Below the pieces are notes generated by a model that did not search any database, was not told where the DNA came from, and worked only from the letters and a program-made list of their open reading frames with translations. A stretch of DNA of 64,000 nt, taken from the NCBI GenBank assembly GCA_038087875.1, contig CM075987.1:18788001-18852000 (forward strand), read 5' to 3'. This document shows, one piece after another, positions 7,925 through 61,583 of the stretch; positions within the stretch are counted from its first letter, which is position 1, and the number at the start of each line of letters is the position of its first letter. The position numbers and the translations under genes were made by a program. Source of the DNA: Malacoraja senta. Lineage: Eukaryota.

Positions 7925-8067
7925 CAGTGGCACAGCTGCTGCCTCGCAACGCCGCAGACCCAGGTTCAATCCTGACCTCGGGTGCAGTCTGTGTGGAGCT
8001 TGCATGATCTCCCTGTGGGTTTCTTCTGCGTGTTCCGGTTTCCTCCCACATCCCAAAGACGTGCGGG
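7925..8067 (+). mobile_element. HE1-like V-SINE, 5' part (resumes at 9266 after the Rex insertion)
   Basis: tRNA-like head and body ttccggtttcctcccacatcccaaagacgtgcggg; body continues as taggctaattggcctctgtaaat at 9266. Confidence 0.75.
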
Positions 8068-9265
8068 TCAAGTCAAGTCAAGTCAAGTGAGTTTATTGTC
8101 ATGTGTCCCTGATAGGAGAATGCAATTCTTGCTTTGCTTCAGCACAACAGAACATAGTAGGCATTTACTACAAAACAGATCAGTGTGTCCATATACCATA
8201 ATATAAATATATACACACATGAATAAATAAACTGATAAAGTGCAGATAACAGATAATGGGTTATTAATAATCAGAGTTTTGTCCGAGCCAGGTTTAATAG
8301 CCTGATGGCTGTGGGGAAGTAGCTATTCCTGAACCTGGTTGTTGCAGTCTTCAGGCTCCTGTACCTTCTACCTGAAGGTAGTAGGGAGATGAGTGTGTGG
8401 CCAGGATGGTGTGGGCCCTTGATGATGCTGCCAGCCTTTTTGAGGCAGCGACTGCGATAGATCCCCTCGATGGAAGGGAGGTCAGAGCCGATGATGGACT
8501 GGACAGTGTTTACTACGTTTTGTAGTCTTTTCCTCTCCAGGGCGCTCAAGTTGCCAAACCAAGCCACGATGCACCCAGTCAGCATGCTCTCTACTGTGCA
8601 CATGTAGAAGTTAGAGAGAGTCCTCCTTGACAAACCGACTCTCCGTAATCTTCTCAGGAAGTAGAGGCGCTGATGAGCTTTCTTGATAATCGCATTAGTG
8701 TTCACGGACCAGGAAAGATCTTCAGAGATGTGCACCCCCAGGAATTTGAAGCTCTTGACCCTTTAAACCATTGACCCGTTGATATAAACGGGACTGTGGG
8801 TCCCCATCCTACTCCTTCCAAAGTCCACAATCAGTTCCTTGGTTTTGCTGGTGTTGAGGGCTAGGTTATTGTGCTGGCACCATATGGACAGTTGCTCGAT
8901 CTCTTCTATACTCTGACTCATCCCCATCAGTGATACGTCCCACCACAGTGGTGTCATCAGCGAACTTGATGATGGAGTTCGCACTGTGACCGGCTACGCA
9001 GTCATGAGTATAGAGTGAGTACAGCAGGGGGCTGAGCACGCAGCCTTGAGGTGCTCCCGTGCTGATTGTTATCGAGGCTGACACATTTCCACCAATATGA
9101 ACAGACTGTGGTCTGTGAATGAGGAAGTTGAGGATCCAATTGCAGAGGGATGCGCAGAGACCCAGTTCTGCGAGTTTGGTAACCAGCTTGGAGGGGATGA
9201 TTGTGTTAAATGCCGAGCTGTAATCGATGAATAACAGCCTGACATATGAGTTTTTGTTGTCCAAG
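8068..9265 (-). mobile_element. Rex1/Babar LINE, 5'-truncated, RT plus C-terminal region
   Basis: ORFs 8866-9264 ([13 protein letters not shown]…[12 protein letters not shown]…KFADD), 8763-8984 and 8271-8735; one frameshift and one stop; (CTTGA)n tail at 8068-8087; nested inside an HE1 SINE. Confidence 0.92.
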
Positions 9266-9829
9266 TAGGCTAATTGGCCTCTGTAAATCGCCCCTGGTGT
9301 ATAGGGAGTTGATGTGGACAGTATTCTTTATCCCAAGTCTCTCTCCTCATGCAAACTACACCCGTTTAAAATCCAAGCTCCAGATTTCAAATCATTGCAT
9401 CATCTTTTGCTTTCTTTGTCCCCAGCAGTGCCCTGTATTGTGGACATTCAGCTAGTGGACCTGCTCCCATTGATTGTGCAAGCAATGCCTTTGCTCAGTA
9501 AATGATGAGACTGGGGAACTTGCTACCGCAAGGAGCAGCAGAAGTGGCTGTATAAGTATCCAAGGACCAAAAGATTTGAAGAATGGCTGTGCCAGGACAA
9601 CAGACCTTTAAGGCCAAGATAAGACTCCATGTTTAAGAACTTTGAAACTAAAGGATACAAGATGGTGCCAGAAAAATGCAACTCATGTACTGCCTCAGTG
9701 TAATCTGCTACTCTTACACAGTCTTGTACTTAGATATGATTGTGTCTATGTATTGTAAGACCTTTACTGAATTCAATGCAAAAGTGGGATTTCACTGTAC
9801 CATTCAACCAGCAGCATAAAGCATGGAAA

Positions 9830-11303: not shown

Positions 11304-11430
11304 CTTCTTCTTCATGCATATGGCGTGCACAGCCTAAAGTTGTAGGACAACTTGTTCTGTTTGATCTTATTTGATTGTGCACACCAGGTCGAAACAGGGA
11401 TGACCACGTGAAGGTTGCAATCTCCCACCC
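11304..11430 (-). mobile_element. HDV-ribozyme-headed short retroelement, copy A (internal deletion)
   Basis: Homologous to 26281-26414; (GAA)n tail; lacks the J4/2-P2' segment. Confidence 0.8.
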
Positions 11431-16510: not shown

Positions 16511-17266
16511 TAAAATCAAAGTAATTATCTTTTTGACGATTATGTTTATTCTCTCTTATTGGAAGCAGTTTCTACTCTTCCACTGTATCAAACCCTTCAT
16601 TTAAATCTGCGTGTCATTTGCATAACCAGATCCCGCCCACAAGTTGGCCTGCACATCTGCCCATGTTACCCTGACCTATCCCAAGATTGATACTGCAACC
16701 ACCCTTTTTATCAAGGAGTCTTGAATTTATAGAGGGGGGGGGGGAAAGAGTAACAAATCACAGGGCTGTAAAATTTACAACCTTGCAGGATGTAAATTGA
16801 CTGCTTAGGCTCAGCGACCTTTGAAGCACACCCTTCATTTCTGTAATACATTTGGAAATGTAAATATGCACGCATCAGCCAGCAATCTGAATTTTATGTT
16901 AAACGCGCACAATGTTCTGCCATAACTCTCGCTTGCATATAATAACAGGAGAGTTCTGTTCAGTCCATTACGCAAAGAGGCTGGTTATGGGCTTTAGGCC
17001 ACCTCTCTCGTCGTTTATGGTTTTAAATGGTGAAATGCACTAAATAAAAGTCAAACATGCCCGTGACATTTCTAAAATGAGTGTGCGAAAGGCTCGGCAG
17101 CTTTACGAGTCTTCCCCCCTCTGACAGATTTGATTACTTCCAATCTGATGGGCATTAGAGTAATGCAGAAGGCAGTGACCCAGACCCGTCTCACGCGCAA
17201 GGGAAAGGGAGAGCTCAGCACTGCCAAGTGTTCTTTTTATGATGCTAGTCTCGTGGGCTTATCTTT

Positions 17267-18253
17267 AGAAACATAGAAACATAGAAATTAGGTGCAGGAG
17301 TAGGCCATTCGGCCCTTCGAGCCTGCACCGCCATTCAATATGATCATGGCTGATCATCCAACTTAGTATCCCATACCTGCCTTCTCTCCATACCCTCTGA
17401 TCCCTTTAGCCACAAGGGCCACATCTACCTCCCTCTTAAATATAGCCAATGAACTGGCCTCGACTACCCTCTGTGGCAGAGAGTTCCAGAGATTCACCAC
17501 TCTCTGTGTGAAAAAAGTTCTTCTCATCTCGGTTTTAAAGGATTTCCCCCTTATCCTTAAGCTGTGACCCCTTGTCCTGGACTTCCCCAACATCGGGAGC
17601 AATCTTCCTGCATCTAGCCTGTCCAACCCCTTAAGAATTTTGTACGTTTCTATAAGATCCCCTCTCAATCTCATAAATTCTAGAGAGTATAAACCAAGTC
17701 TATCCAGTCTTTCTTCATAAGACAGTCCTGACATCCCAGGAATCAGTCTGGTGAACCTTCTCTGCACTCCCTCTATGGCAATAATGTCCTTCCTCAGATT
17801 TGGAGACCAAAACTGTATGCAATACTCCAGGTGTGGTCTCACCAAGACCCTGTACAACTGCAGTAGAACCTCCCTGCTCCTATACTCAAATCCTTTTGCT
17901 ATGAAAGCTAACATACCATACGCTTTCTTCACTGCCTGCTGCACCTGCATGCCTACTTTCAATGACTGGTGTACCATGACACCCAGGTCTCGCTGCATCT
18001 CCCCTTTTCCTAGTCGGCCACCATTTAGATAATAGTCTGCTTTCCTGTTTTTGCCACCAAAGTGGATAACCTCACATTTATCCACATTATACTGCATCTG
18101 CCAAACATTTTCCCACTCACCCAGCCTATCCAAGTCATCTTGCAGTCTCCTAGCATCCTCCTCACAGCTAACACTGCCCCCCAGCTTAGTGTCATCTGCA
18201 AACTTGGAGATATTGCCTTCAATTCCCTCATCCAGATCATTAATATATATTGT
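17267..18253 (-). mobile_element. Young 5'-truncated CR1 LINE (RT C-terminal half, open frame)
   Basis: Uninterrupted frame IYINDLDEGIEGNISKFADDTKL…VRPHLEYCIQFWSP…LWNSLP…; 3' UTR and (TTTCTATG)n tail at 17267-17287. Confidence 0.95.
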
Positions 18254-18362
18254 AAATATATATTACAATATATATATATTACACTATTATATATATATAT
18301 AAATAAATATATATTTAGGCCCTGCTTCAGCCGGACACATGTTGGAGAAGGTCACTCAGCCC

Positions 18363-18720: not shown

Positions 18721-19679
18721 CTGGATACAATCTGCCACATCGGGGATCTCCACCAGCCACCGCCCCATCACCAGCCCATTCCCTCCATTGATGGCCAAAG
18801 GGTAGTACTGAACACAGAGTGATTCTACCCCACAACCCACTCCTTGCCCCATTTTCCTCCTTCATATCTCTTTGCATGTTTTCCAATGTTCCATTGTTGA
18901 TTTAGAACATAAGACACATGAGTAGAATTAGGCCATTTACCATCGTATCTAATCAGTCATTCGATCATGGCTGATTTATTTTTCCCTCTCAACCCAATTC
19001 TCCTGCCTTCTCCCCATCACCCTGGACACACTTACTAATCAAGACTTTTGTGGATATTTACAACTTCATCAAGATTATAACATGTTTTGTAGATTGAATA
19101 TCATTAATCCTTTGGCCTTCTCTCACTAAAGAGGGCTCCCAACCTGAAACATCGCATGTCCATTCCCTCCACTGATGCCGACTGACCTACTTTGTGTTTT
19201 GCTCAAGATTTCAGCGTCTGCCGGGTTTTTTTGCGTCACTTTTTATTTTACCCACCATTTCTTTCAAAAAGAGGGATTAAAATGCTTCATAAATTGTCTG
19301 ACATCTACGTTTGATCTGTGGATATGGGACAATTGTAAAAAGTTCAATCAAACCTTAATTAAATCCCCAATGATCTTTGACCTGCACTCAACATTGCCAA
19401 GGTCACCAATGCTGCACACAGGCATAATTAGGTGTTTTTATTTTAATCATCTAGGCCTGTATATGACAAACTTCCCAGGAGTAAGCCTAAGGACAAATGC
19501 CAAAATCCAGTCACCAACACCAATAAGACCATAAGACATAGGAGTAGAATTAGGCCATTTGGCCCATCGTGTCTACTCCGCCATTCGATCGTGGCTGATC
19601 TGTGTTTCCTTCCCAAATAGAGAGGGAAAGCAGTATCACTGCAGGAGTGACTAGAACCAGTGGTCACAGTCTCACCATA

Positions 19680-20130
19680 GACAAAGGACAAAGGACAAAG
19701 GACATTTATTGTCACATACACCAAATGGTGTAGTGAAATTTGTCTTGCCATGCAGCACAAATTAGACACAACATTAAAGAAATTTAACATAAAACATAAA
19801 AACATCCCCCCCACAATGGTTCCCACTGTGGGGGAAGGCACAAAGTCCAATCCCCATCCCATGTCCACCCATAGTCGGGCCTATTGAGGCCTCCACAGTC
19901 ACCTTCACAGAGGCCCGATGTTCCAGGCCGTTCTCGCCGGGTGATGGTGCTCCGGTGTCGGGAGAACCCTCTCAGCGGCTTGGGACACCTGGAACGGCCG
20001 CCTCCTTACTCGAGACCGTGGTTTCCGAAGCCAACAGGCTTCGGAAGCCACTGATGGAGCTCCACCACTGGCGATCTCGGCGAGAGATCCCAGGCTCCCG
20101 ATGTAAAGTTCAGCGCCGCCGCCCGCAGCG
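19680..20130 (-). mobile_element. GC-rich non-autonomous retroelement with Rex-type tail
   Basis: Minus-strand tail gtgacaataaatgtcctttgtcctttgtcctttg; body homologous to ~46050-46315; hairpin at 19808-19834. Confidence 0.6.
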
Positions 20131-20428
20131 GGTTATTTCAGAACAGAAACAAGGTCAAATTTCTTCACTCAGAGCATAGTGACTCTTTGAAATTCCCAAC
20201 CCAATCTTACGATGAAGGCATAATTGCTGAGTGCCGTCATCAAATGCCTGATATAGCTGAATCTTAATGCCCCAACTTTTGAACTCCATTCCCCCAGCAA
20301 TAACTCCTAACACAATCCCACCATGTACTAAAATGCTCTCCAACCAATTACATAGTTCCTGACTGCTAATAGTTAAGTCACAAAGAGATATCGAATAAAC
20401 AGACCCTCCGGCCTAGCACATCCATGCT

Positions 20429-20561
20429 TCTTCTTCTTCTTCTGCAAAGCCTAAAGTTGTAGGACAACTTGTTCTATTTGATCTTATTTGTTTGTGCACG
20501 CCGGGTTGGTTGCATTTGTCGAAACAGGGCGGACCACGTGAAGGTTGCAATCTCCCACCCC
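20429..20561 (-). mobile_element. HDV-ribozyme-headed short retroelement, copy B
   Basis: TSD gcacatccatgct at 20416-20428 and 20562-20574; (GAA)n tail. Confidence 0.88.
20508..20561 (-). ncRNA. Putative minimal HDV-like self-cleaving ribozyme
   Basis: GGGGUGG-GA-GAUUGCA-ACC-UUCACGU-GGU-CCGCCCU-G-UUUCGA-CAAA-UGCAACC; all helices form, with one P2 mismatch. Confidence 0.75.
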
Positions 20562-20924
20562 GCACATCCATGCTGATCCTTCACCACTCACTAGGCTAAT
20601 CCTACATTAATCCCATATTTTGGTTTATTCTCTCGCATTCTCATCCACTCCTCCCAGATCCTACCACTTACCTACACGCTGGGGGCAATTTACAACTGCT
20701 AATTACCCCACCGATCATGTCTTTGGGATGTGTGAGGTGGAAACCTATGTGGCCTCCAGGAGAGCATATAACCCCACGTAGACTGCACCAGTAGAAGAGT
20801 AGAAGATTGAACCTGCACCTCTGATACAGTGAGGCAGCTGCACAACTGTGACGGTCAAAATTCTCATCATAAGGTCGACGAACAGCTAATCAGATAATCT
20901 TGGCTGAAGGCGAAATGTAGATCG

Positions 20925-21000
20925 GGATATTCTCCTTAAATAATAGTTATTTATATTCATTTGAGGATATTCTCCTTAAATAATAGCTATTTATATTCAT
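20925..21000. repeat. Tandem duplication of a 36-bp unit (period 40)
   Basis: ggatattctccttaaataatag(t/c)tatttatattcat twice. Confidence 0.9.
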
Positions 21001-21058
21001 ATATTCCTGTACAGGATCATGGTTTCATATCTCAAGCTAAAGAAAACATGGTCAACTA

Positions 21059-21396
21059 GAGACACAAGGAACTGCAGATGCTGGAGACTTGAGCAAAACA
21101 CAAAGTGCTGGAGGAGCGCAATGGGATAGGTATATCAGGCAGCATCTGTGGAGGGAATGGACAGTCTGAAGAAGGGTCCCGACCTGAAGCATTGTCTGTC
21201 TATTCCCTCCACAGATGCTGCCCGACCTGCTGAGTTCCTCCAGCACTTTGAGTTTTGCTCAAGATTTCAGCATCTGCAGTTTGTGTCACCTTATTTTATC
21301 CACTGTTTGTTAAAAATAGATGAATAAAATGCATCACAAATCTCCTGATATCTATGTTTGATCTGTGGACATGGTTCCTTCAGCACTGTGTGTTTT
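21059..21396. mobile_element. Palindromic Penelope-derived insertion carrying a captured local segment
   Basis: TSD atggtcaacta at 21048-21058 and 21397-21407; inverted arms; 21281-21374 resembles 19231-19327. Confidence 0.7.
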
Positions 21397-22193
21397 ATGG
21401 TCAACTATGCAGCTCTCTCATTTTATGAATCAGTATTTGATATTTCTTCCATCATTTGTCATCGCCTAAACAAAAAGAGCTGAGATCTTTCTCTTTGTAT
21501 TGTGAGAAATCCCACAAGTCTCCTTCATTTATTCTTATATGCAACTCAGCCATAATGTGATATTTAATGCAGGCAGAGGCGATCATATTATTCTGGCATC
21601 ATGTTCGGTATAGACATTGTGGGCCCAAGGGCCTGTTCCTATGCTGTACTGTTCTGTTCTGTGTTCTATGTTCTCACAATACAACCAATTGTAATGGACA
21701 GTCTTGCTTTGAGAAACTGAGGGCCCTTTTAAACCATTGACCGTGGGAAACCCATTAAGCCTTTTATGGATTTTATAAGCAAATTATTGAAAGGTTTAAC
21801 TTTTCTTTACAACATAATTTGCAGTGTTGTATTGATTATTTGCTCCAGGTCCGTGTAATGATCTCATCAAGGCATTAATGAAGTGCATTCCACTCCATTT
21901 AGGAGAATCAAACCCTTTTGCTTCGTGCTTTACAGTGGAGTCCACACTCCTTGAGCTGGCAATGATGGAAAGAGTGAGACCAGGGATGCTGGATGTGGAT
22001 GACAGGAGCTATGGACCCATTTTTAAATGGAGGCTCTTGACAAATTAAAACATTATTCACCAACACGAGGACTTGTCAGATGCTAGCACAGAGCTTTACT
22101 CTATGACATTCTGGGCCTTGCCCTTGTGGACCAAGATGTTTCACATCAAGTCAAGTATTATGTAGGTGCAGGGAAATAGTGGGGAAATACTCA

Positions 22194-25130: not shown

Positions 25131-26280
25131 ATCGATCAAAAGACCCCGGTCAGGTCAGCCTCTGCAGCTTCTCCCTTCAGCAGACAGACACCCTGTGCCA
25201 CAGTGCCTGCAAACATTGACGTGGAATGAAGAATAGGTCTCTGCTCACTGCAGAACGTAATGTTGCACAGAGTTCCCCCTTCCCCCACCTTTTAGGTTTA
25301 TATATCTCACCCTGCTCCACAGCTTATATTCAAGGGAAAGAAAGAGTGATACGCAGAAATAGCATGCAGGTGATTATTTGTAAATGAAAAACGAACACAT
25401 CAAGATGGATGCTGCACTTTTTGATATACTGCTGCATCTTGAGCATACAGCAAGGTACCTCCCCATCACCGCCAGCATTCATTACAATATTAAAATGGCT
25501 ACAGCCCAATAAATTGTGCATCATTAACACAGTCCATTGATTTTTTTGTGTGTGCTGCTGCCAACAGCCCAGGCAGCCAGTCTCTCCACATCAGTCTATT
25601 GGATTGAAATTCATTTCCTATTTAAGGGTCAGAGTCCAGGGCCTCTTTAGTCTGAACTTCCCAAAGGCCAAATCTGATCAATATTTGGAGATATATTTGA
25701 TCCTTGGCTGGTGGCGTAGATTAAGTGGTCATAAATACAATAAAAAAACGGGGACTGCTGCTAACTCGTGACTGCAAAATGAAAGGTGAGCTGAGAGGGA
25801 ACTCTCCACTGAAGGAGTCAATGGGCGTTTACGAAAAAGCACAGATGCTCTCAAGCACACATGCGCACAAGGTTAAAACTGTTTACTAGGCTTTCATTTG
25901 CATCGCTTGCTTTTCTTCAATATGTTTGAGGCTACAGCGAGGATGTTGTGAATGAAAGCATCCATTCATAAGGGACCCCTGATTAATATACCAACAGATT
26001 TAAACGAGTTGGTCACATCTTGCTCCAATCAACAGAAATTGATAAGAATAAAGGATAAAGACAAGAAGATTGCTTGGTGAAACGAGGAATTGCAGTTGCT
26101 GGAATTTTGAACAAAGCACAAAGCACCTGGAGGAACTCGGGGTCAGGCAGCATTTGTGGAGGGAAATGTTTTAGATCAGGGCCCTTCGCTGGACTGCCCC
26201 TTGCATTTAGTTAGATTTTCACCAGTAAACTTCTCAAAACTAACCCCCCATCGCAGTGCTGCAGTAACAGCAGGTTGGGC

Positions 26281-26334
26281 GGGGTGGGAGATTGCAACCT
26301 TCACGTGGTCCACCCTGTTTCGACATATGCAATC
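26281..26334 (+). ncRNA. Putative minimal HDV-like self-cleaving ribozyme
   Basis: P1 26281-87/26310-16 (G1·U), P2 26290-96/26328-34, P3 26297-99/26307-09, L3 UUCACGU, catalytic-position C26324. Confidence 0.75.
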
Positions 26335-26414
26335 AACCAGGCGTGCACAAACAGAAGATGAAACAGAACAAGTTGTCTTACAACTTTAGACTGTGCCCGC
26401 CATACGCAAGAAGA
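26281..26414 (+). mobile_element. HDV-ribozyme-headed short retroelement, copy C
   Basis: TSD agcaggttgggc at 26269-26280 and 26415-26426; tail cgccatacgcaagaagaag. Confidence 0.9.
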
Positions 26415-36225: not shown

Positions 36226-38579
36226 TTTTTTTTTTTTTAATTTTATTTTTTTATATATAAATTTTTTATTAGAAGCAAACATATTACAGTGTAGAGTAAC
36301 ATATTATAATAGAATAGAAGAAAAAACTTTTCATATACATCAATCATTCATACATTATTAAATTTGTCAATTGTCAGTTAATTCTGCTTCTAGTGTTTTT
36401 TTTATATAGATAGAAAAAGAAAAATAGAGAGAAAGAAGAGAAAGAAAGAAAAATGTCAATATCAAAAAAGAAAAAAAGGTGGAATGAATTACTTATAATA
36501 CGTCATAGGAGATAAGTTCGTATGTTATGAAATATAATTACATCTAATCCTTAGTTCAAGCTTGAGTCGGGCTTTTGCGCTGGGCCACTCTATCCCTTCA
36601 AATAGGCAATGAATGGAGCCCATATTTTAACAAAAAGTTCTTGCTTGTCCATTAAGACGAGTCTAATTCTTTCTAGATGTAGGGTCTCCGACATTTCCAC
36701 AATCCACATTTTAATTGTGGGGGTTGTAGGGCCTTTCCAGAATTTTAATATTAATTTTTTCCCTGTTATTATACTGTAGTCAAGAAAGTTTCTTTGGCTT
36801 GTTGTGAGTGTTAAACTTTGTTCTGAAATCCCAAGTATTATTAATTTTGAGTCTGGAGCTAGTTTGGTATTAACAACTTCGGAGATTATTTGAAAGATAT
36901 CAGTCCAGTAATTTTTAATTTTTATACAATTTGCAAAGGTATGTGTTAAATTGGCCTCTAGATGCAGGCATTTATCACATATAGGAGAAATATGTGGGAA
37001 AATTCTATTTAGTTTTATTTTGGAATAATGTAATCTGTGTAAGACTTTAAATTGTATTAAAGCATGTCTGGCATTTAACGAACATTGATGTATATGTTGT
37101 AAACTTTCGTCCCAAATATCTTTCGTAATAGGATAACCTAACTCATTTTCCCATTTATGTCTATATAGTTCCATCGGTGGTTCCTCATTATTTAAGAGAA
37201 TGTTATAAATATAAGCTATTAATTTCTCAGTGTTAGGATGCTTATTCAAACATTCATCAAGAATTTCTGGTTCCCTAGTCCTATAAACCTGTGTATTGGA
37301 TTTAACATAATCTCTAATTTGTAAATATCTGAAAAAGTTATTTGAGTGTAGTCCATGATTCTGTTGTAACTCTTGAAATGACAGAAAGATGCCTTCCCTA
37401 TAAAGATGTCCAATCCTTTTAATTCCATGATTTTTCCATTGTATAAAACCTCTATCCAATATGGATGGCTTGAATAGAGGATTATTTACAATGGGAAGAC
37501 ATAGTGGTATATTATTCAGTTTTAAAGCCTTTTTTAATTGTTTCCAAATTCGTATTCCACTATGTATTATAGGGTTTTCCTTATAGGTTTTTTTATGCAA
37601 TTTTGTGGTAGCAAATATAATCAAACCTATTTCAAAAGGTAAACAGTCTTCCTTTTCCATCCTTAACCATTCTGGTTGTTGGTCCATTTCTTCCAGCCAG
37701 AAATTCATGTTTTAATATGGACTGCCCAAAAATAAAATAAAAAATTTGGCAAAGCCAAACCTCCGTTGCTCTTTGACTTACATAAATGTTTTTTACTTAT
37801 TCTATGATTCTTATAATCCCAAATAAAGCTTGTAACAATGGAGTCGACTTTTAAAAAAAAGTTTTTTGGAATATATATCGGAATTAATTGAAAAAATATA
37901 GTAGTTGCGGTAAGAAAATCATTTTTATAGCATTAATTCTACCAAGCATTGAAATAGGAAGTGTTTTCCAGCACTGAATATGTTTGTGTAATTTTTTAAG
38001 TAAGGATGGAACATTTTGTTTAAATAAAGAGGTATATGCCTTAGTTACATAGATTCCTAAATATTTAAGTTTATCTTTAACTATTTTAAAAGGGGATTGT
38101 TGTATTGTATTTAAGTTGAATTTTGTTATTGGCATAATTTCACTTTTATTCCAATTAATCCTATATCCTGAGAACTGACCAAATTGTGTTATTAGATTTA
38201 ATAGATTTGGAATACTAGTTTCTAACTTTGTAATATATATTAATACATCATCTGCATATAAGGAAATTTTATTCCTTGTATCTCTAGTGTTGTATCCATG
38301 TATTCCTGGATGGTTTCTAACGCTTTCTGCTAACGGTTCAATTGCAAGAGCAAATAATAGTGGGGATAGTGAACATCCTTGTCTACAACCTCTGGAAAGA
38401 TTAAATTTGGCTGATAACATTTGATTTGTTAATATTCTAGCTGTTGGATTAGAGTATAACAATTTAACCCATGTGCAGAACTTCTCTCCCAATTGAAATT
38501 TTTTCATTACCGAAAATAAATATGTCTATTCTACCTGGTCAAATGCCTTTTCAGCATCTAACGAAATAATTGCTAGATC
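36226..38579 (-). mobile_element. L1/Tx1-clade LINE, 5'-truncated ORF2 (RT, C-terminal Cys motif) with poly(A) tail
   Basis: ISLDAEKAFDQVE* at the 5' end; RGCRQGCSLSPLLF…LYADD (37884-38507); CDKC…HTFANC (36590-37708); poly-T from 36226; inserted into a CR1 tail that resumes at 38580. Confidence 0.93.
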
Positions 38580-46857: not shown

Positions 46858-47967
46858 TATTTTATATTTCTTAGTTGATTGGTCACAGAATCAAAACATA
46901 GGGATTAATTGATGGAAAAAAATGATTGCTAATTATAACCTAATCTTTAATATGTGGACAGGTGCATTTTTGACCATCTTAAAGACTGTGAAGTAGACCA
47001 CTGTAAATGAAATAGTTTATCATCTCATAGTTTATTTTCCCCTTTACCTGTTCATTCTGAAGTACATAATCTTAATTCATACCCTTACACCAGACTGTTT
47101 CTGTGATACATCTCTTCTTGTTTGGACTGTTATGTCATTATTTGCTTTATTATGTCACTGTACCATTGCTAAACACTGCCGTTGCATTTAATCAACTCTT
47201 CCCGGCAAGTTGCTGTATGATCCTCATGAACAATAATTAAGGGGATGGGTCGAGGTGGGGGTAGGGTATGTGGTAAAACAACTTGCACATCCTTATTCTA
47301 CGGACCGGATGGACACAGGTTGAACCTCGGGCATGTGCAAGACCCATTAGTTGCTGGGACCTGCACAGAAGTGAACGAGTGCCATATCAATAACCAAACA
47401 ATCAACCATCCATTATTCTATCTGCAATTATGACACCGAGGCCACGGGGTCAAGGGTGCTATGAACTGTGGATTTATGTCCACTCTTGTGATTTTCACAA
47501 ATCTTGGTAACAAACATCACTGCAGGTGGTTAATAAGGAATTATCTCTGCTCAGATTGATCGCAAGCATTGACAGAGTGAGGGCTATTCTCTCGTTTGAA
47601 GCTTTCTCCAATGCATTGATCATGACTTGTGGCAGTCAGCTCTTTGCTATTATCCAGGGTCATTGGTCCTTCCTGGGAGACACTGCCAGATGTGGTGGCC
47701 TTCACTGTGCTCACAAATCTCCCACCCAGGTCTGCTGACACCATGATCTCAGGATAAACCCTGCCTTTCAATACCTTTAAGGAAAGCCTTATTCCAATCA
47801 TTGAAAAAGGCTGAGCTGCACTTTGCAATTGTTTGCCATTTAAGTGTTTATATTTAAGAATATCGGCAAAAGGTCATCCAATTCTCACCAAATTTATTCC
47901 TTTCTCAACATCCAAGCACACTATATTTCAGCAAAAATGACTCGTCTTTTTTCATCGTCCATCAAGA

Positions 47968-48022
47968 GGGGTAGGAGATTGCAACCTCCACGTTGGTCCG
48001 CCCTATTTCGACGAATGCAGTC
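47968..48022 (+). ncRNA. Degenerate minimal HDV-like ribozyme
   Basis: GGGGUAG-GA-GAUUGCA-ACC-UCCACGUU-GGU-CCGCCCU-A-UUUCGA-CGAA-UGCAGUC; canonical CGAA J4/2, but substitutions in P1 and P1.1. Confidence 0.55.
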
Positions 48023-48104
48023 AACCTGCATGCACAATCAAATAGACCAAATAGAACAAGTTGTCCTACAACTTTAGGCTGTGCATGCCATATGCAGAGA
48101 AGAA
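47968..48104 (+). mobile_element. HDV-ribozyme-headed short retroelement, copy D
   Basis: TSD gtccatcaaga at 47957-47967 and 48105-48115; GAA tail. Confidence 0.88.
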
Positions 48105-50801: not shown

Positions 50802-50832
<31 letters not shown>

Positions 50833-61235: not shown

Positions 61236-61488
61236 GGGGAACAGCACTTCATTTCCTGCTTGGGTAGTTTACAACTCAACGGTATGAACACTGAATTCTC
61301 CACTTTTTGGTACCTGTGTCCAACTTATACCACCTGACAGGCTTTGTGCCCGCCCAGACTCTTTCCCAGCTTTCTCCCCTCACCCCCACCCTACTGCAAT
61401 CAGTGTGAGGATGGGTCTCGACCCAAAACGTCACCTACCCATGTCCTCCACAGATACTGCCTGACCCTCTGAGTTACTCCAGCGCTTT
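61236..61488 (+). mobile_element. Penelope-like element 3' end (GIY-YIG C-terminus plus pLTR with decayed hammerhead)
   Basis: GEQHFISCLGSLQLNGMNTEFSTF, then gtgtgaggatgggtctcgacccaaaacgtcacc at 61403-61435. Confidence 0.75.
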
Positions 61489-61499
61489 GTGTGTGTGTG

Positions 61500-61583
<84 letters not shown>
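61488..61583. repeat. (TG)n/(CGTG)n microsatellite
   Basis: Directly visible. Confidence 0.95.

Follow-up and report, generated by a model that had tools for sequence, protein, structure and literature searches.

A high-copy SINE-like retroelement family in a skate genome begins with a candidate minimal HDV-like ribozyme

The window, by which we mean the whole 64,000-nt stretch of Malacoraja senta DNA that was analysed, contains four copies of one short repeat family, which we label A, B, C and D. Among the 20 longest of its 69 stop-to-stop ORFs of at least 90 aa (both strands), RVT_1 was found in four and ALKBH8_N in one, and no host-gene family was found in these 20. The window's LINE fragments terminate in different repeats, which on the plus strand read (GTCAA)n and (TAGAAACA)n. 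Copy B, which is the subject of this analysis, is a 133-nt element on the minus strand (20561..20429) that lies between the two copies of a target site duplication (TSD); read on the minus strand, it starts with GGGGTGGGAG and ends with (GAA)5. The family copies of the window and the main parts of copy B are as follows.

11304..11430, minus strand: copy A; candidate ribozyme broken, with J4/2 and the P2 3′ strand lost, and no clear TSD
20416..20428, no strand: TSD copy at the (GAA)n tail of copy B; absent along with the element in the contigs of organisms E and F
20429..20443, minus strand: (GAA)5 tail of copy B, read directly from the sequence
20444..20503, minus strand: 3′ domain of copy B; the hairpin at 20454-20470 is retained, and about 12 nt, which in the family make up the 3′ strand of the long closing stem, have been lost, as judged from family comparison and the loose-end consensus at 20443
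20429..20561, minus strand: copy B element, 133 nt (family consensus ~142 nt), recognised by similarity to genomic copies
20562..20574, no strand: TSD copy at the 5′ end of copy B, GCACATCCATGCT; the single copy retained at the empty site of the related organisms
26281..26414, plus strand: copy C; 12-bp TSD AGCAGGTTGGGC at 26269 and 26415, U5-A32, and J4/2 reading CAUA (A46 changed to U)
47968..48104, plus strand: copy D; 12-bp TSD GTCCATCAAGAG at 47957 and 48105, A6·C31 mismatch, an insertion in L3, and G37A

The 13-bp TSD that the initial annotation had claimed for copy B is exact: GCACATCCATGCT (plus strand) occurs at 20416-20428 and 20562-20574 and nowhere else in the window, flanking the 133-nt element. 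It is also the sole exact 13-mer direct repeat with a spacing of 100-200 nt in the 64-kb window (one pair). We examined the corresponding site in related organisms by aligning the Logan contigs of four runs to positions 19000-22000. In the 910-nt contig of organism E, positions 20134-20415 and 20562-20952 align at adjacent contig positions; what this organism lacks is therefore exactly 20416-20561, comprising the element and one copy of the TSD. The contig of organism F has the same 20415|20562 gap with a less clean junction, and the flanks in the two contigs diverge from the window by ~6-7% (46/673 and 40/648 letters). The summed depth over the element was very large in all four runs, with alignments ending at 20561. 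The abundance of the element in all four runs, together with the empty site of copy B, indicates that the family predates the species splits while copy B postdates them. Copy B is thus a recent, lineage-specific insertion of a ~142-nt non-autonomous non-LTR (SINE-like) retroelement, and its closest genomic copies, among the 40 matches scored, are 97% identical to it over 119 nt. The loose-end consensus at 20443 in the contigs of the related organisms gives ~12 letters that are missing from copy B; with the 3′ strand of the long stem lost from the 3′ module, further transposition is improbable, and to judge from its sequence, copy B will probably not be mobilised again.

The family is large. 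In the 1.94-Gb assembly, copy B as a query gave 2,323 first-look candidates, and all 40 of the matches that were scored had E ≤ 2.1e-47. Exact matching with the 21-nt centre fixed returned 4,529 copies in the frame of nt 2-36, and 5,201 in the frame of nt 22-56, so that the genome holds at least 5,201 copies (about 5,000 at the least). A 21-mer of the 3′ hairpin had 3,300 exact matches, fewer than the 4,529 of the ribozyme-like core, indicating that there is no excess of 5′-truncated copies that keep the 3′ end alone. The family consensus of ~142 nt consists of the ribozyme-like head, a 9-10-bp long-range stem around a 7-bp hairpin, and then (GAA)n; it is short, non-coding, high-copy and tailed by a simple repeat at the 3′ end, as a non-autonomous non-LTR (SINE-like) element is. 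Among 49 distinct copies with an aligned 5′ end, which were obtained by similarity and are not an unbiased sample, 41 have a TSD (8-16 nt, at most one mismatch). In 22 of these 41 the TSD ends directly before the first base of the element, G1; in 14 it overlaps the first 1-2 bases, and the other 5 have an offset of +1 to +3.

This 5′ end coincides with a predicted cleavage site. Nucleotides 1-54 of copy B can be modelled as an HDV/CPEB3-type nested double pseudoknot, in which P1 and P2 cross and P3 and P1.1 lie inside. The parts of the model are placed as follows, with all RNA letters read on the minus strand.

Between 20562 and 20561, minus strand: predicted cleavage site 5′ of G1, from the fold model
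20508..20561, minus strand: candidate minimal HDV-like (CPEB3-type) ribozyme, nt 1-54; the RF02682 alignment covers exactly 20561..20508
20555..20561, minus strand: P1 5′ strand, nt 1-7, GGGGUGG; pairs with nt 30-36, with G1·U36 and U5·G32
20546..20552, minus strand: P2 5′ strand, nt 10-16; pairs with nt 48-54, with A11 (20551) opposite C53
20533..20545, minus strand: P3 ACC/GGU around L3 UUCACGU, nt 17-29, with U20, C22 and G25 inside; the L3 letters equal the Rfam CPEB3 consensus
20526..20532, minus strand: P1 3′ strand, nt 30-36, CCGCCCU, from the fold
20519..20525, minus strand: G37 (P1.1 partner of C22), U38 and the 5-nt replacement of P4, UUCGA; 3-5 nt in the family, 16-20 in the Rfam models
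20515..20518, minus strand: J4/2 CAAA with the putative catalytic C44 at 20518; C44 in 49/49 aligned copies
20508..20514, minus strand: P2 3′ strand, nt 48-54, from the fold; C53 (20509) breaks one pair and is found in 0/100 unselected copies

In this model, P1 has 7 bp, among them G1·U36 and, inside the helix, U5·G32, and P3 (nt 17-19 with 27-29) has 3 bp. C22 and G37 can pair, G37 following immediately after P1, and U21 lies opposite U38; J4/2, starting with C44, leads directly into the 3′ strand of P2. Every part of the fold that had been noted before, namely P1 with a U·G inside, P3, the L3 loop, the P1.1 G and J4/2 CAAA, is present in copy B, and the single broken P2 pair is A11·C53 (window 20551/20509). 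Standard pairs account for 17 of the 18 modelled pairs, and the five contiguous P2 pairs that adjoin the core are intact. The minimum free energy (MFE) structure of nt 1-58 is exactly P1 plus P3, at −12.4 kcal/mol, and P2 alone has −4.7. Across 31 distinct copies, 95.1% of the cells are paired, against 23-47% with slid partners, a control that is circular in that the structure was derived from the same sequences. The P4 hairpin is not present, its place being taken by 3-5 nt where the Rfam models have 16-20. Since the literature recognises "minimal" members that have no P4 (PMC10879173), the missing P4 assigns the module to a subgroup and does not exclude it from the HDV-like class.

To search for the fold, we used a descriptor consisting of G1·U, a 7-bp P1, a 3-bp P3, L3 as U.C..G, a G after P1, C-N-A-A, and a P2 of at least 5 bp. 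Copy B had been proposed as the best-preserved ribozyme candidate, and the sequences bear this out: of the four window copies it alone passes this descriptor, the damage in the other three being heavier. The descriptor was composed after sequence inspection and its figures therefore overstate significance: searching the window in both orientations gives a single site, which begins at 20561, and substituting A, G or T for the catalytic C leaves none; the descriptor finds no site in 300 dinucleotide shuffles of the window; and over 331 kb of collected sequence it finds 38 matches, every one of them a family copy, with none in the mutated-C controls.

The comparison with Rfam points in the same direction at low scores. 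There was no match at gathering score on the whole window, and a search of 401 nt at E ≤ 10 returned a lone chance lncRNA match (E 8.3). HDV-type matches emerge only with the search space reduced to 71 nt, where, among 4,227 families, RF00622 (CPEB3) and RF02682 (HDV-F-prausnitzii), both of HDV type, are the only ones at E ≤ 10. Copy B scores 11.6 bits (E 0.69) against RF00622 and 13.1 bits (E 1.2) against RF02682; a majority-type copy (L003) matches the same two families, with 11.0 and 14.4 bits. The two alignments share one P1/P3/L3 register that begins at G1. These scores of 11-14 bits are far under the gathering thresholds of 35 (RF00622) and 44 (RF02682), and by the criterion of Rfam the module is therefore a member of neither family.

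These searches also bear on the idea that the family is an ordinary Pol III SINE, in which the first base would be the Pol III start, nt 1-58 would be a degenerate head derived from a small RNA, and the fit to an HDV-like fold would be a coincidence. Classical SINEs likewise have precise 5′ ends and high copy numbers, and GTTTCGAC is, in our own reading, faintly B-box-like. Against this, ARAGORN found no tRNA-like head in the element, and Rfam gave no similarity to tRNA, 5S, 7SL or snRNA while the sole two families at E ≤ 10 are HDV-type; the absence of descriptor matches in the 300 shuffles also speaks against a coincidental fit. We consider this explanation highly improbable. As an internal Pol III promoter of tRNA, 5S or 7SL origin was not found, we call the element "SINE-like" only.

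We next consider how the module varies within the family, counting variants by eye on 100 unselected copies per frame. The 3′ strand of P1 reads CCGCCC in 53 copies, CCACCC in 27 (U5-A32), CTGCCC in 8 (G6·U31) and otherwise in 12. These frequent P1 variants keep pairing but sit in CpG and may be mere products of deamination. The unpaired G8 is A in 38/100. Position 45, the N of C-N-A-A, is G in 55, U in 28, A in 15 and C in 2, which makes CGAA the majority form of J4/2, whereas the adjacent A46 and A47 are changed in none of the 100. C44 is invariant in the 49 aligned copies and changed in 7/100 unselected ones, four of these changes being C-to-T in a CpG context. The one core position that varies freely, 45, also differs among known ribozymes, the consensus being CGAA for CPEB3 and CUAA for RF02682. 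Read from the sequences, the variation among unselected copies fits the known constraints on such ribozymes.

The same counts qualify two points of the initial annotation, which had taken the U·G of copy B as a pairing-preserving change relative to the U-A of copy C and had listed CAAA as a conserved J4/2. Both states of the P1 pair do exist, but U5·G32 is the family majority and the U-A of copy C (CCACCC, 27/100) is a CpG-decay or subfamily state. Likewise, CAAA is present in copy B but is a minority form (A45 in 15/100) compared with CGAA (55/100). Relative to the majority sequence, the candidate ribozyme of copy B thus differs in two places: G45A, which is a subfamily state, and U53C, which makes the P2 mismatch.

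We also found a form in which the 3′ half of the candidate ribozyme is deleted, with nt 30 joined to the 3′ domain. It is represented by 19 copies at ≤2 mismatches, compared with >5,000 that keep this half intact, and 5 of the 19 share an extra change. This suggests, from the sequences, that some spread, if limited, took place without the ribozyme, which counts against the ribozyme reading.

Covariation, in an alignment of 49 copies (31 distinct) of this young family, is nil: not one of the 18 pairs shows a change in both partners, and the observed score is matched or exceeded in 436 of 500 shuffles. Such an absence is expected if most of the differences arose after insertion; the helices are accordingly without evolutionary proof. 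Zero covariation, the sub-threshold Rfam scores and the missing P4 would all suit a 5′ module that is a structural RNA with no catalytic role, such as a pseudoknot to which the mobilising protein binds, the 5′ end of the element then coming from a transcription start or a host nuclease. For R2, the protein reportedly binds a pseudoknot that lies inside the HDV-like ribozyme of that element (PMC6765202). What such a structural role leaves unaccounted for is that the core and catalytic residues known from the literature are all in the expected place (the first C of J4/2, G1·U36, U20/G25 and C22-G37), that C44, A46 and A47 stay fixed while their neighbour 45 varies freely, and that the 5′ end of the element is the predicted scissile bond. 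We regard a purely structural module as unlikely, if somewhat less so than a Pol III head. At the level of the family, we favor the reading, with a probability of roughly 0.7, that the retroelement is headed by a self-cleaving ribozyme of the minimal, P4-less HDV-like kind, as the fold model predicts.

For copy B itself the balance is closer. In the model, all core residues are intact and one P2 pair is broken, so that copy B could still cut a minus-strand transcript; we put the chances that it does still cleave at about even. The competing view, to which we give somewhat less than even odds, is that copy B is a dead fossil: the ribozyme of the family may be real, but owing to a lack of minus-strand transcription, or to misfolding caused by the P2 mismatch and the flank, nothing would be cleaved at this locus. 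C53 occurs in 0/100 unselected copies, and hence no successful lineage vouches for the A11·C53 mismatch of copy B; on the other hand, among 30 loci retrieved by a copy B query, 4 (L005, L012, L024, L026) also have C53, five contiguous P2 pairs adjoining the core remain, and 17 of the 18 modelled pairs and every core residue are in place. Misfolding is suggested by the nested MFE fold with 60 nt of upstream flank, which lacks P1 and P3, although MFE folding is unable to model a pseudoknot. The families seen in the window ORFs (RVT_1 in four, ALKBH8_N in one) are LINE fragments only, with no host gene seen, and the 3′ module of copy B is already damaged, both of which agree with a fossil.

If the 5′ module is a ribozyme, the best-supported mechanism for the family, by analogy, is that of R2, L1Tc and their short derivatives: co-transcription, self-cleavage at the first base and LINE-primed reverse transcription. 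This mechanism is established for R2, L1Tc and derivatives according to PMC6765202, PMC3414825, PMC3185411 and PMC4035085, and HDV-like ribozymes are described in LINEs and non-autonomous SINEs of various metazoans (PMC6765202, citing Ruminski et al. 2011). The skate element, being promoter-less on this model, would be transcribed within longer host or read-through transcripts, and the ribozyme would cut just 5′ of G1 to give an RNA whose 5′ end is the first base of the element. A LINE-encoded endonuclease/reverse transcriptase acting in trans would then recognise the 3′ module, that is, the long stem around the hairpin followed by (GAA)n, and would prime on (GAA)n at the nicked target; copying of the RNA through to its 5′ end would leave the 8-16-bp TSDs.

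We looked for the partner LINE by several routes. The 30 best RVT_1 loci have no similarity to the element. Patterns with non-element letters beside the ribozyme, the 3′ domain or the last 27 nt retrieved only rearranged element copies, and a tail-only BLAST and a (GAA)n scan over 331 kb retrieved element copies only. Three candidate junctions were rejected, their sequences being interrupted or rearranged element copies. In all, no LINE with the 5′ or 3′ end of the element was found in the 30 RT loci, the window or the four pattern searches.

Several known systems resemble the skate family in part. R2 SIDEs and the trypanosomatid NARTc and SIDER are likewise short and non-coding, begin with an HDV-like ribozyme whose proposed role is to free the element from co-transcripts, and have a 3′ end that is used by a LINE enzyme in trans (PMC3414825, PMC3185411, PMC4035085 and PMC6765202). 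As described there, they clearly derive by internal deletion from a parent LINE that is known, while no such parent was found here in the loci searched; R2 SIDEs are site-specific, whereas the skate insertions are dispersed; and the ribozyme would be 54 nt here compared with ~184 nt in R2 and 77 nt in L1Tc. The hammerhead SINE-like elements of schistosomes, as PMC6765202 presents them, are also high-copy short retroelements with a small self-cleaving ribozyme, but of another ribozyme class, and they are transcribed by Pol III and function as tandem multimers, in contrast to the single dispersed copies seen here. Ribozyme-headed non-autonomous non-LTR retroelements are a known kind, and the copy B family is an addition to it.

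With regard to the fold, the closest likeness by description is to drz-Mtgn-1 and the phage theta ribozymes, which have a nested double pseudoknot, no P4 and the catalytic C first in J4/2 (PMC10879173). The same source reports P4-less HDV-like ribozymes ("minimal drz") almost only from phages; these are gut phages nearly throughout, often with the ribozyme beside tRNAs, whereas here the candidate stands at the head of a retroelement in a large eukaryotic genome, and the likeness is one of description.

By sequence, the comparison is with the mammalian CPEB3 ribozyme (RF00622). According to PMC4836649, this ribozyme has a G1·U36 and a G25·U20 wobble, a P1.1 of one G-C plus U-U, and a J4/2 of 4 nt with the catalytic cytosine in first place, while the cleavage-site wobble of HDV is G1·U37. 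The skate module shares with it the numbering to nt 38, G1·U36, the 7-bp P1, the 3-bp P3, L3 UUCACGU, a P1.1 of one G-C plus U·U, the GU after P1 and, in the family majority form, J4/2 CGAA; the metal-binding wobble residues U20 and G25 are at the expected places in copy B. The two differ in their stem sequences, in P4 (16 model positions reduced to 3-5 nt) and in that the skate module scores 11-11.6 bits where the gathering threshold is 35. In addition, CPEB3 is a single conserved intronic locus, while the skate module heads a mobile family of thousands of copies. The identity of the core letters with CPEB3 may be convergence, as the bacterial RF02682 consensus also has P3 ACC/GGU and most of L3.

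A literature search with three 22-letter strings of the element (two DNA stretches, one of them also as RNA letters) gave no match, and the literature retrieved on HDV-like ribozymes with SINEs or on the origin of CPEB3 contained the known precedents, with the copy B family not among them. As far as these searches go, the copy B family, a P4-less candidate ribozyme in a eukaryotic mobile element, and a core in which every unpaired letter agrees with the CPEB3 consensus are new. A bolder reading would be that a 54-nt P4-less HDV-like ribozyme suffices to bring a eukaryotic retroelement up to a copy number in the thousands, and that the family may also belong to the lineage that was the source of the mammalian CPEB3 ribozyme, all unpaired core letters and the numbering to nt 38 being common to both. 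We see this as a long shot.

The locus of copy B is in itself ordinary, there being thousands of such copies. With an active ribozyme, the genome would hold several thousand potential self-cleavage sites, and every sense-oriented copy within a gene could cut the pre-mRNA of that gene. An active family would also be a natural variant library of a very small HDV-like ribozyme, and would show a promoter-less element spreading through host transcription and the trimming of its own 5′ end in a large, animal-sized genome. It would further extend P4-less HDV-like ribozymes from a range that is almost only phages to a eukaryotic mobile element, and would provide a lead, open to testing, on where the CPEB3 ribozyme came from.

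As a minor observation on the target sites, many TSDs of the family start with A followed by A or G; in our own reading, a nicked target of this composition could pair with the GAA tail.

In the family consensus, the 3' module of the element folds into a 9-10-bp long-range stem, in which GGCGUGCAC is paired with GUGCACGCC (for example, at 1560-1624 of the element-bearing locus L003), and this stem encloses a 7-bp hairpin with the loop CCU. The hairpin loop differs among copies, being CCU, CCG or CUG. The predicted fold is probably the recognition element of the mobilising enzyme. Among the copies examined (loci L003-L080 and the window copies), many of the target-site duplications, which lie immediately next to the (GAA)n tail, have A as their first base and A or G as their second. 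This suggests that a short stretch of homology shared by the tail and the nicked target serves for priming.

We also scanned ORFs for domain families in LINE fragments in three ranges of the window, two of which have a short tandem repeat on their 3' side.

8271-9327, minus strand, LINE fragment
8067-8088, (GTCAA)n as read on the plus strand, 3' side of LINE fragment
17363-18262, minus strand, LINE fragment
17266-17287, (TAGAAACA)n as read on the plus strand, 3' side of LINE fragment
36590-38525, minus strand, LINE fragment

An RVT_1 match was found in three of the four ORFs scanned within these ranges, one ORF (8271-8762) matched ALKBH8_N, and the ORF at 36590-37711 gave no domain match. Neither the fragment followed by (GTCAA)n nor the one followed by (TAGAAACA)n has a (GAA)n end, so neither stands out as a partner for the element.

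A variant of the element lacking the 3' half of the ribozyme, in which nt 30 is fused directly to the 3' domain, is present in 19 copies in the assembly containing the window, with examples on two contigs.

C1:294047093-294047128, ribozyme-deleted variant
C2:32550567-32550602, ribozyme-deleted variant

Since 5 of the 19 have an additional change in common, the data suggest limited spread or duplication of this ribozyme-less form. Separately, some element copies are interrupted by other repeats inserted within them (L070:868-1568 and L083).

Around copy B, the regions 19505-19605, 19707-20110, 21020-21322 and 21525-21726 are further high-copy repeats common to the related organisms A, B, E and F; the summed contig depth over them was very large in the contigs of all four runs. 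Three other repeats in the window look unremarkable.

20925-21000, 1.9 repeats of a 40-bp unit
50803-50832, C run of 30 nt
61488-61583, (TGTG)24 microsatellite
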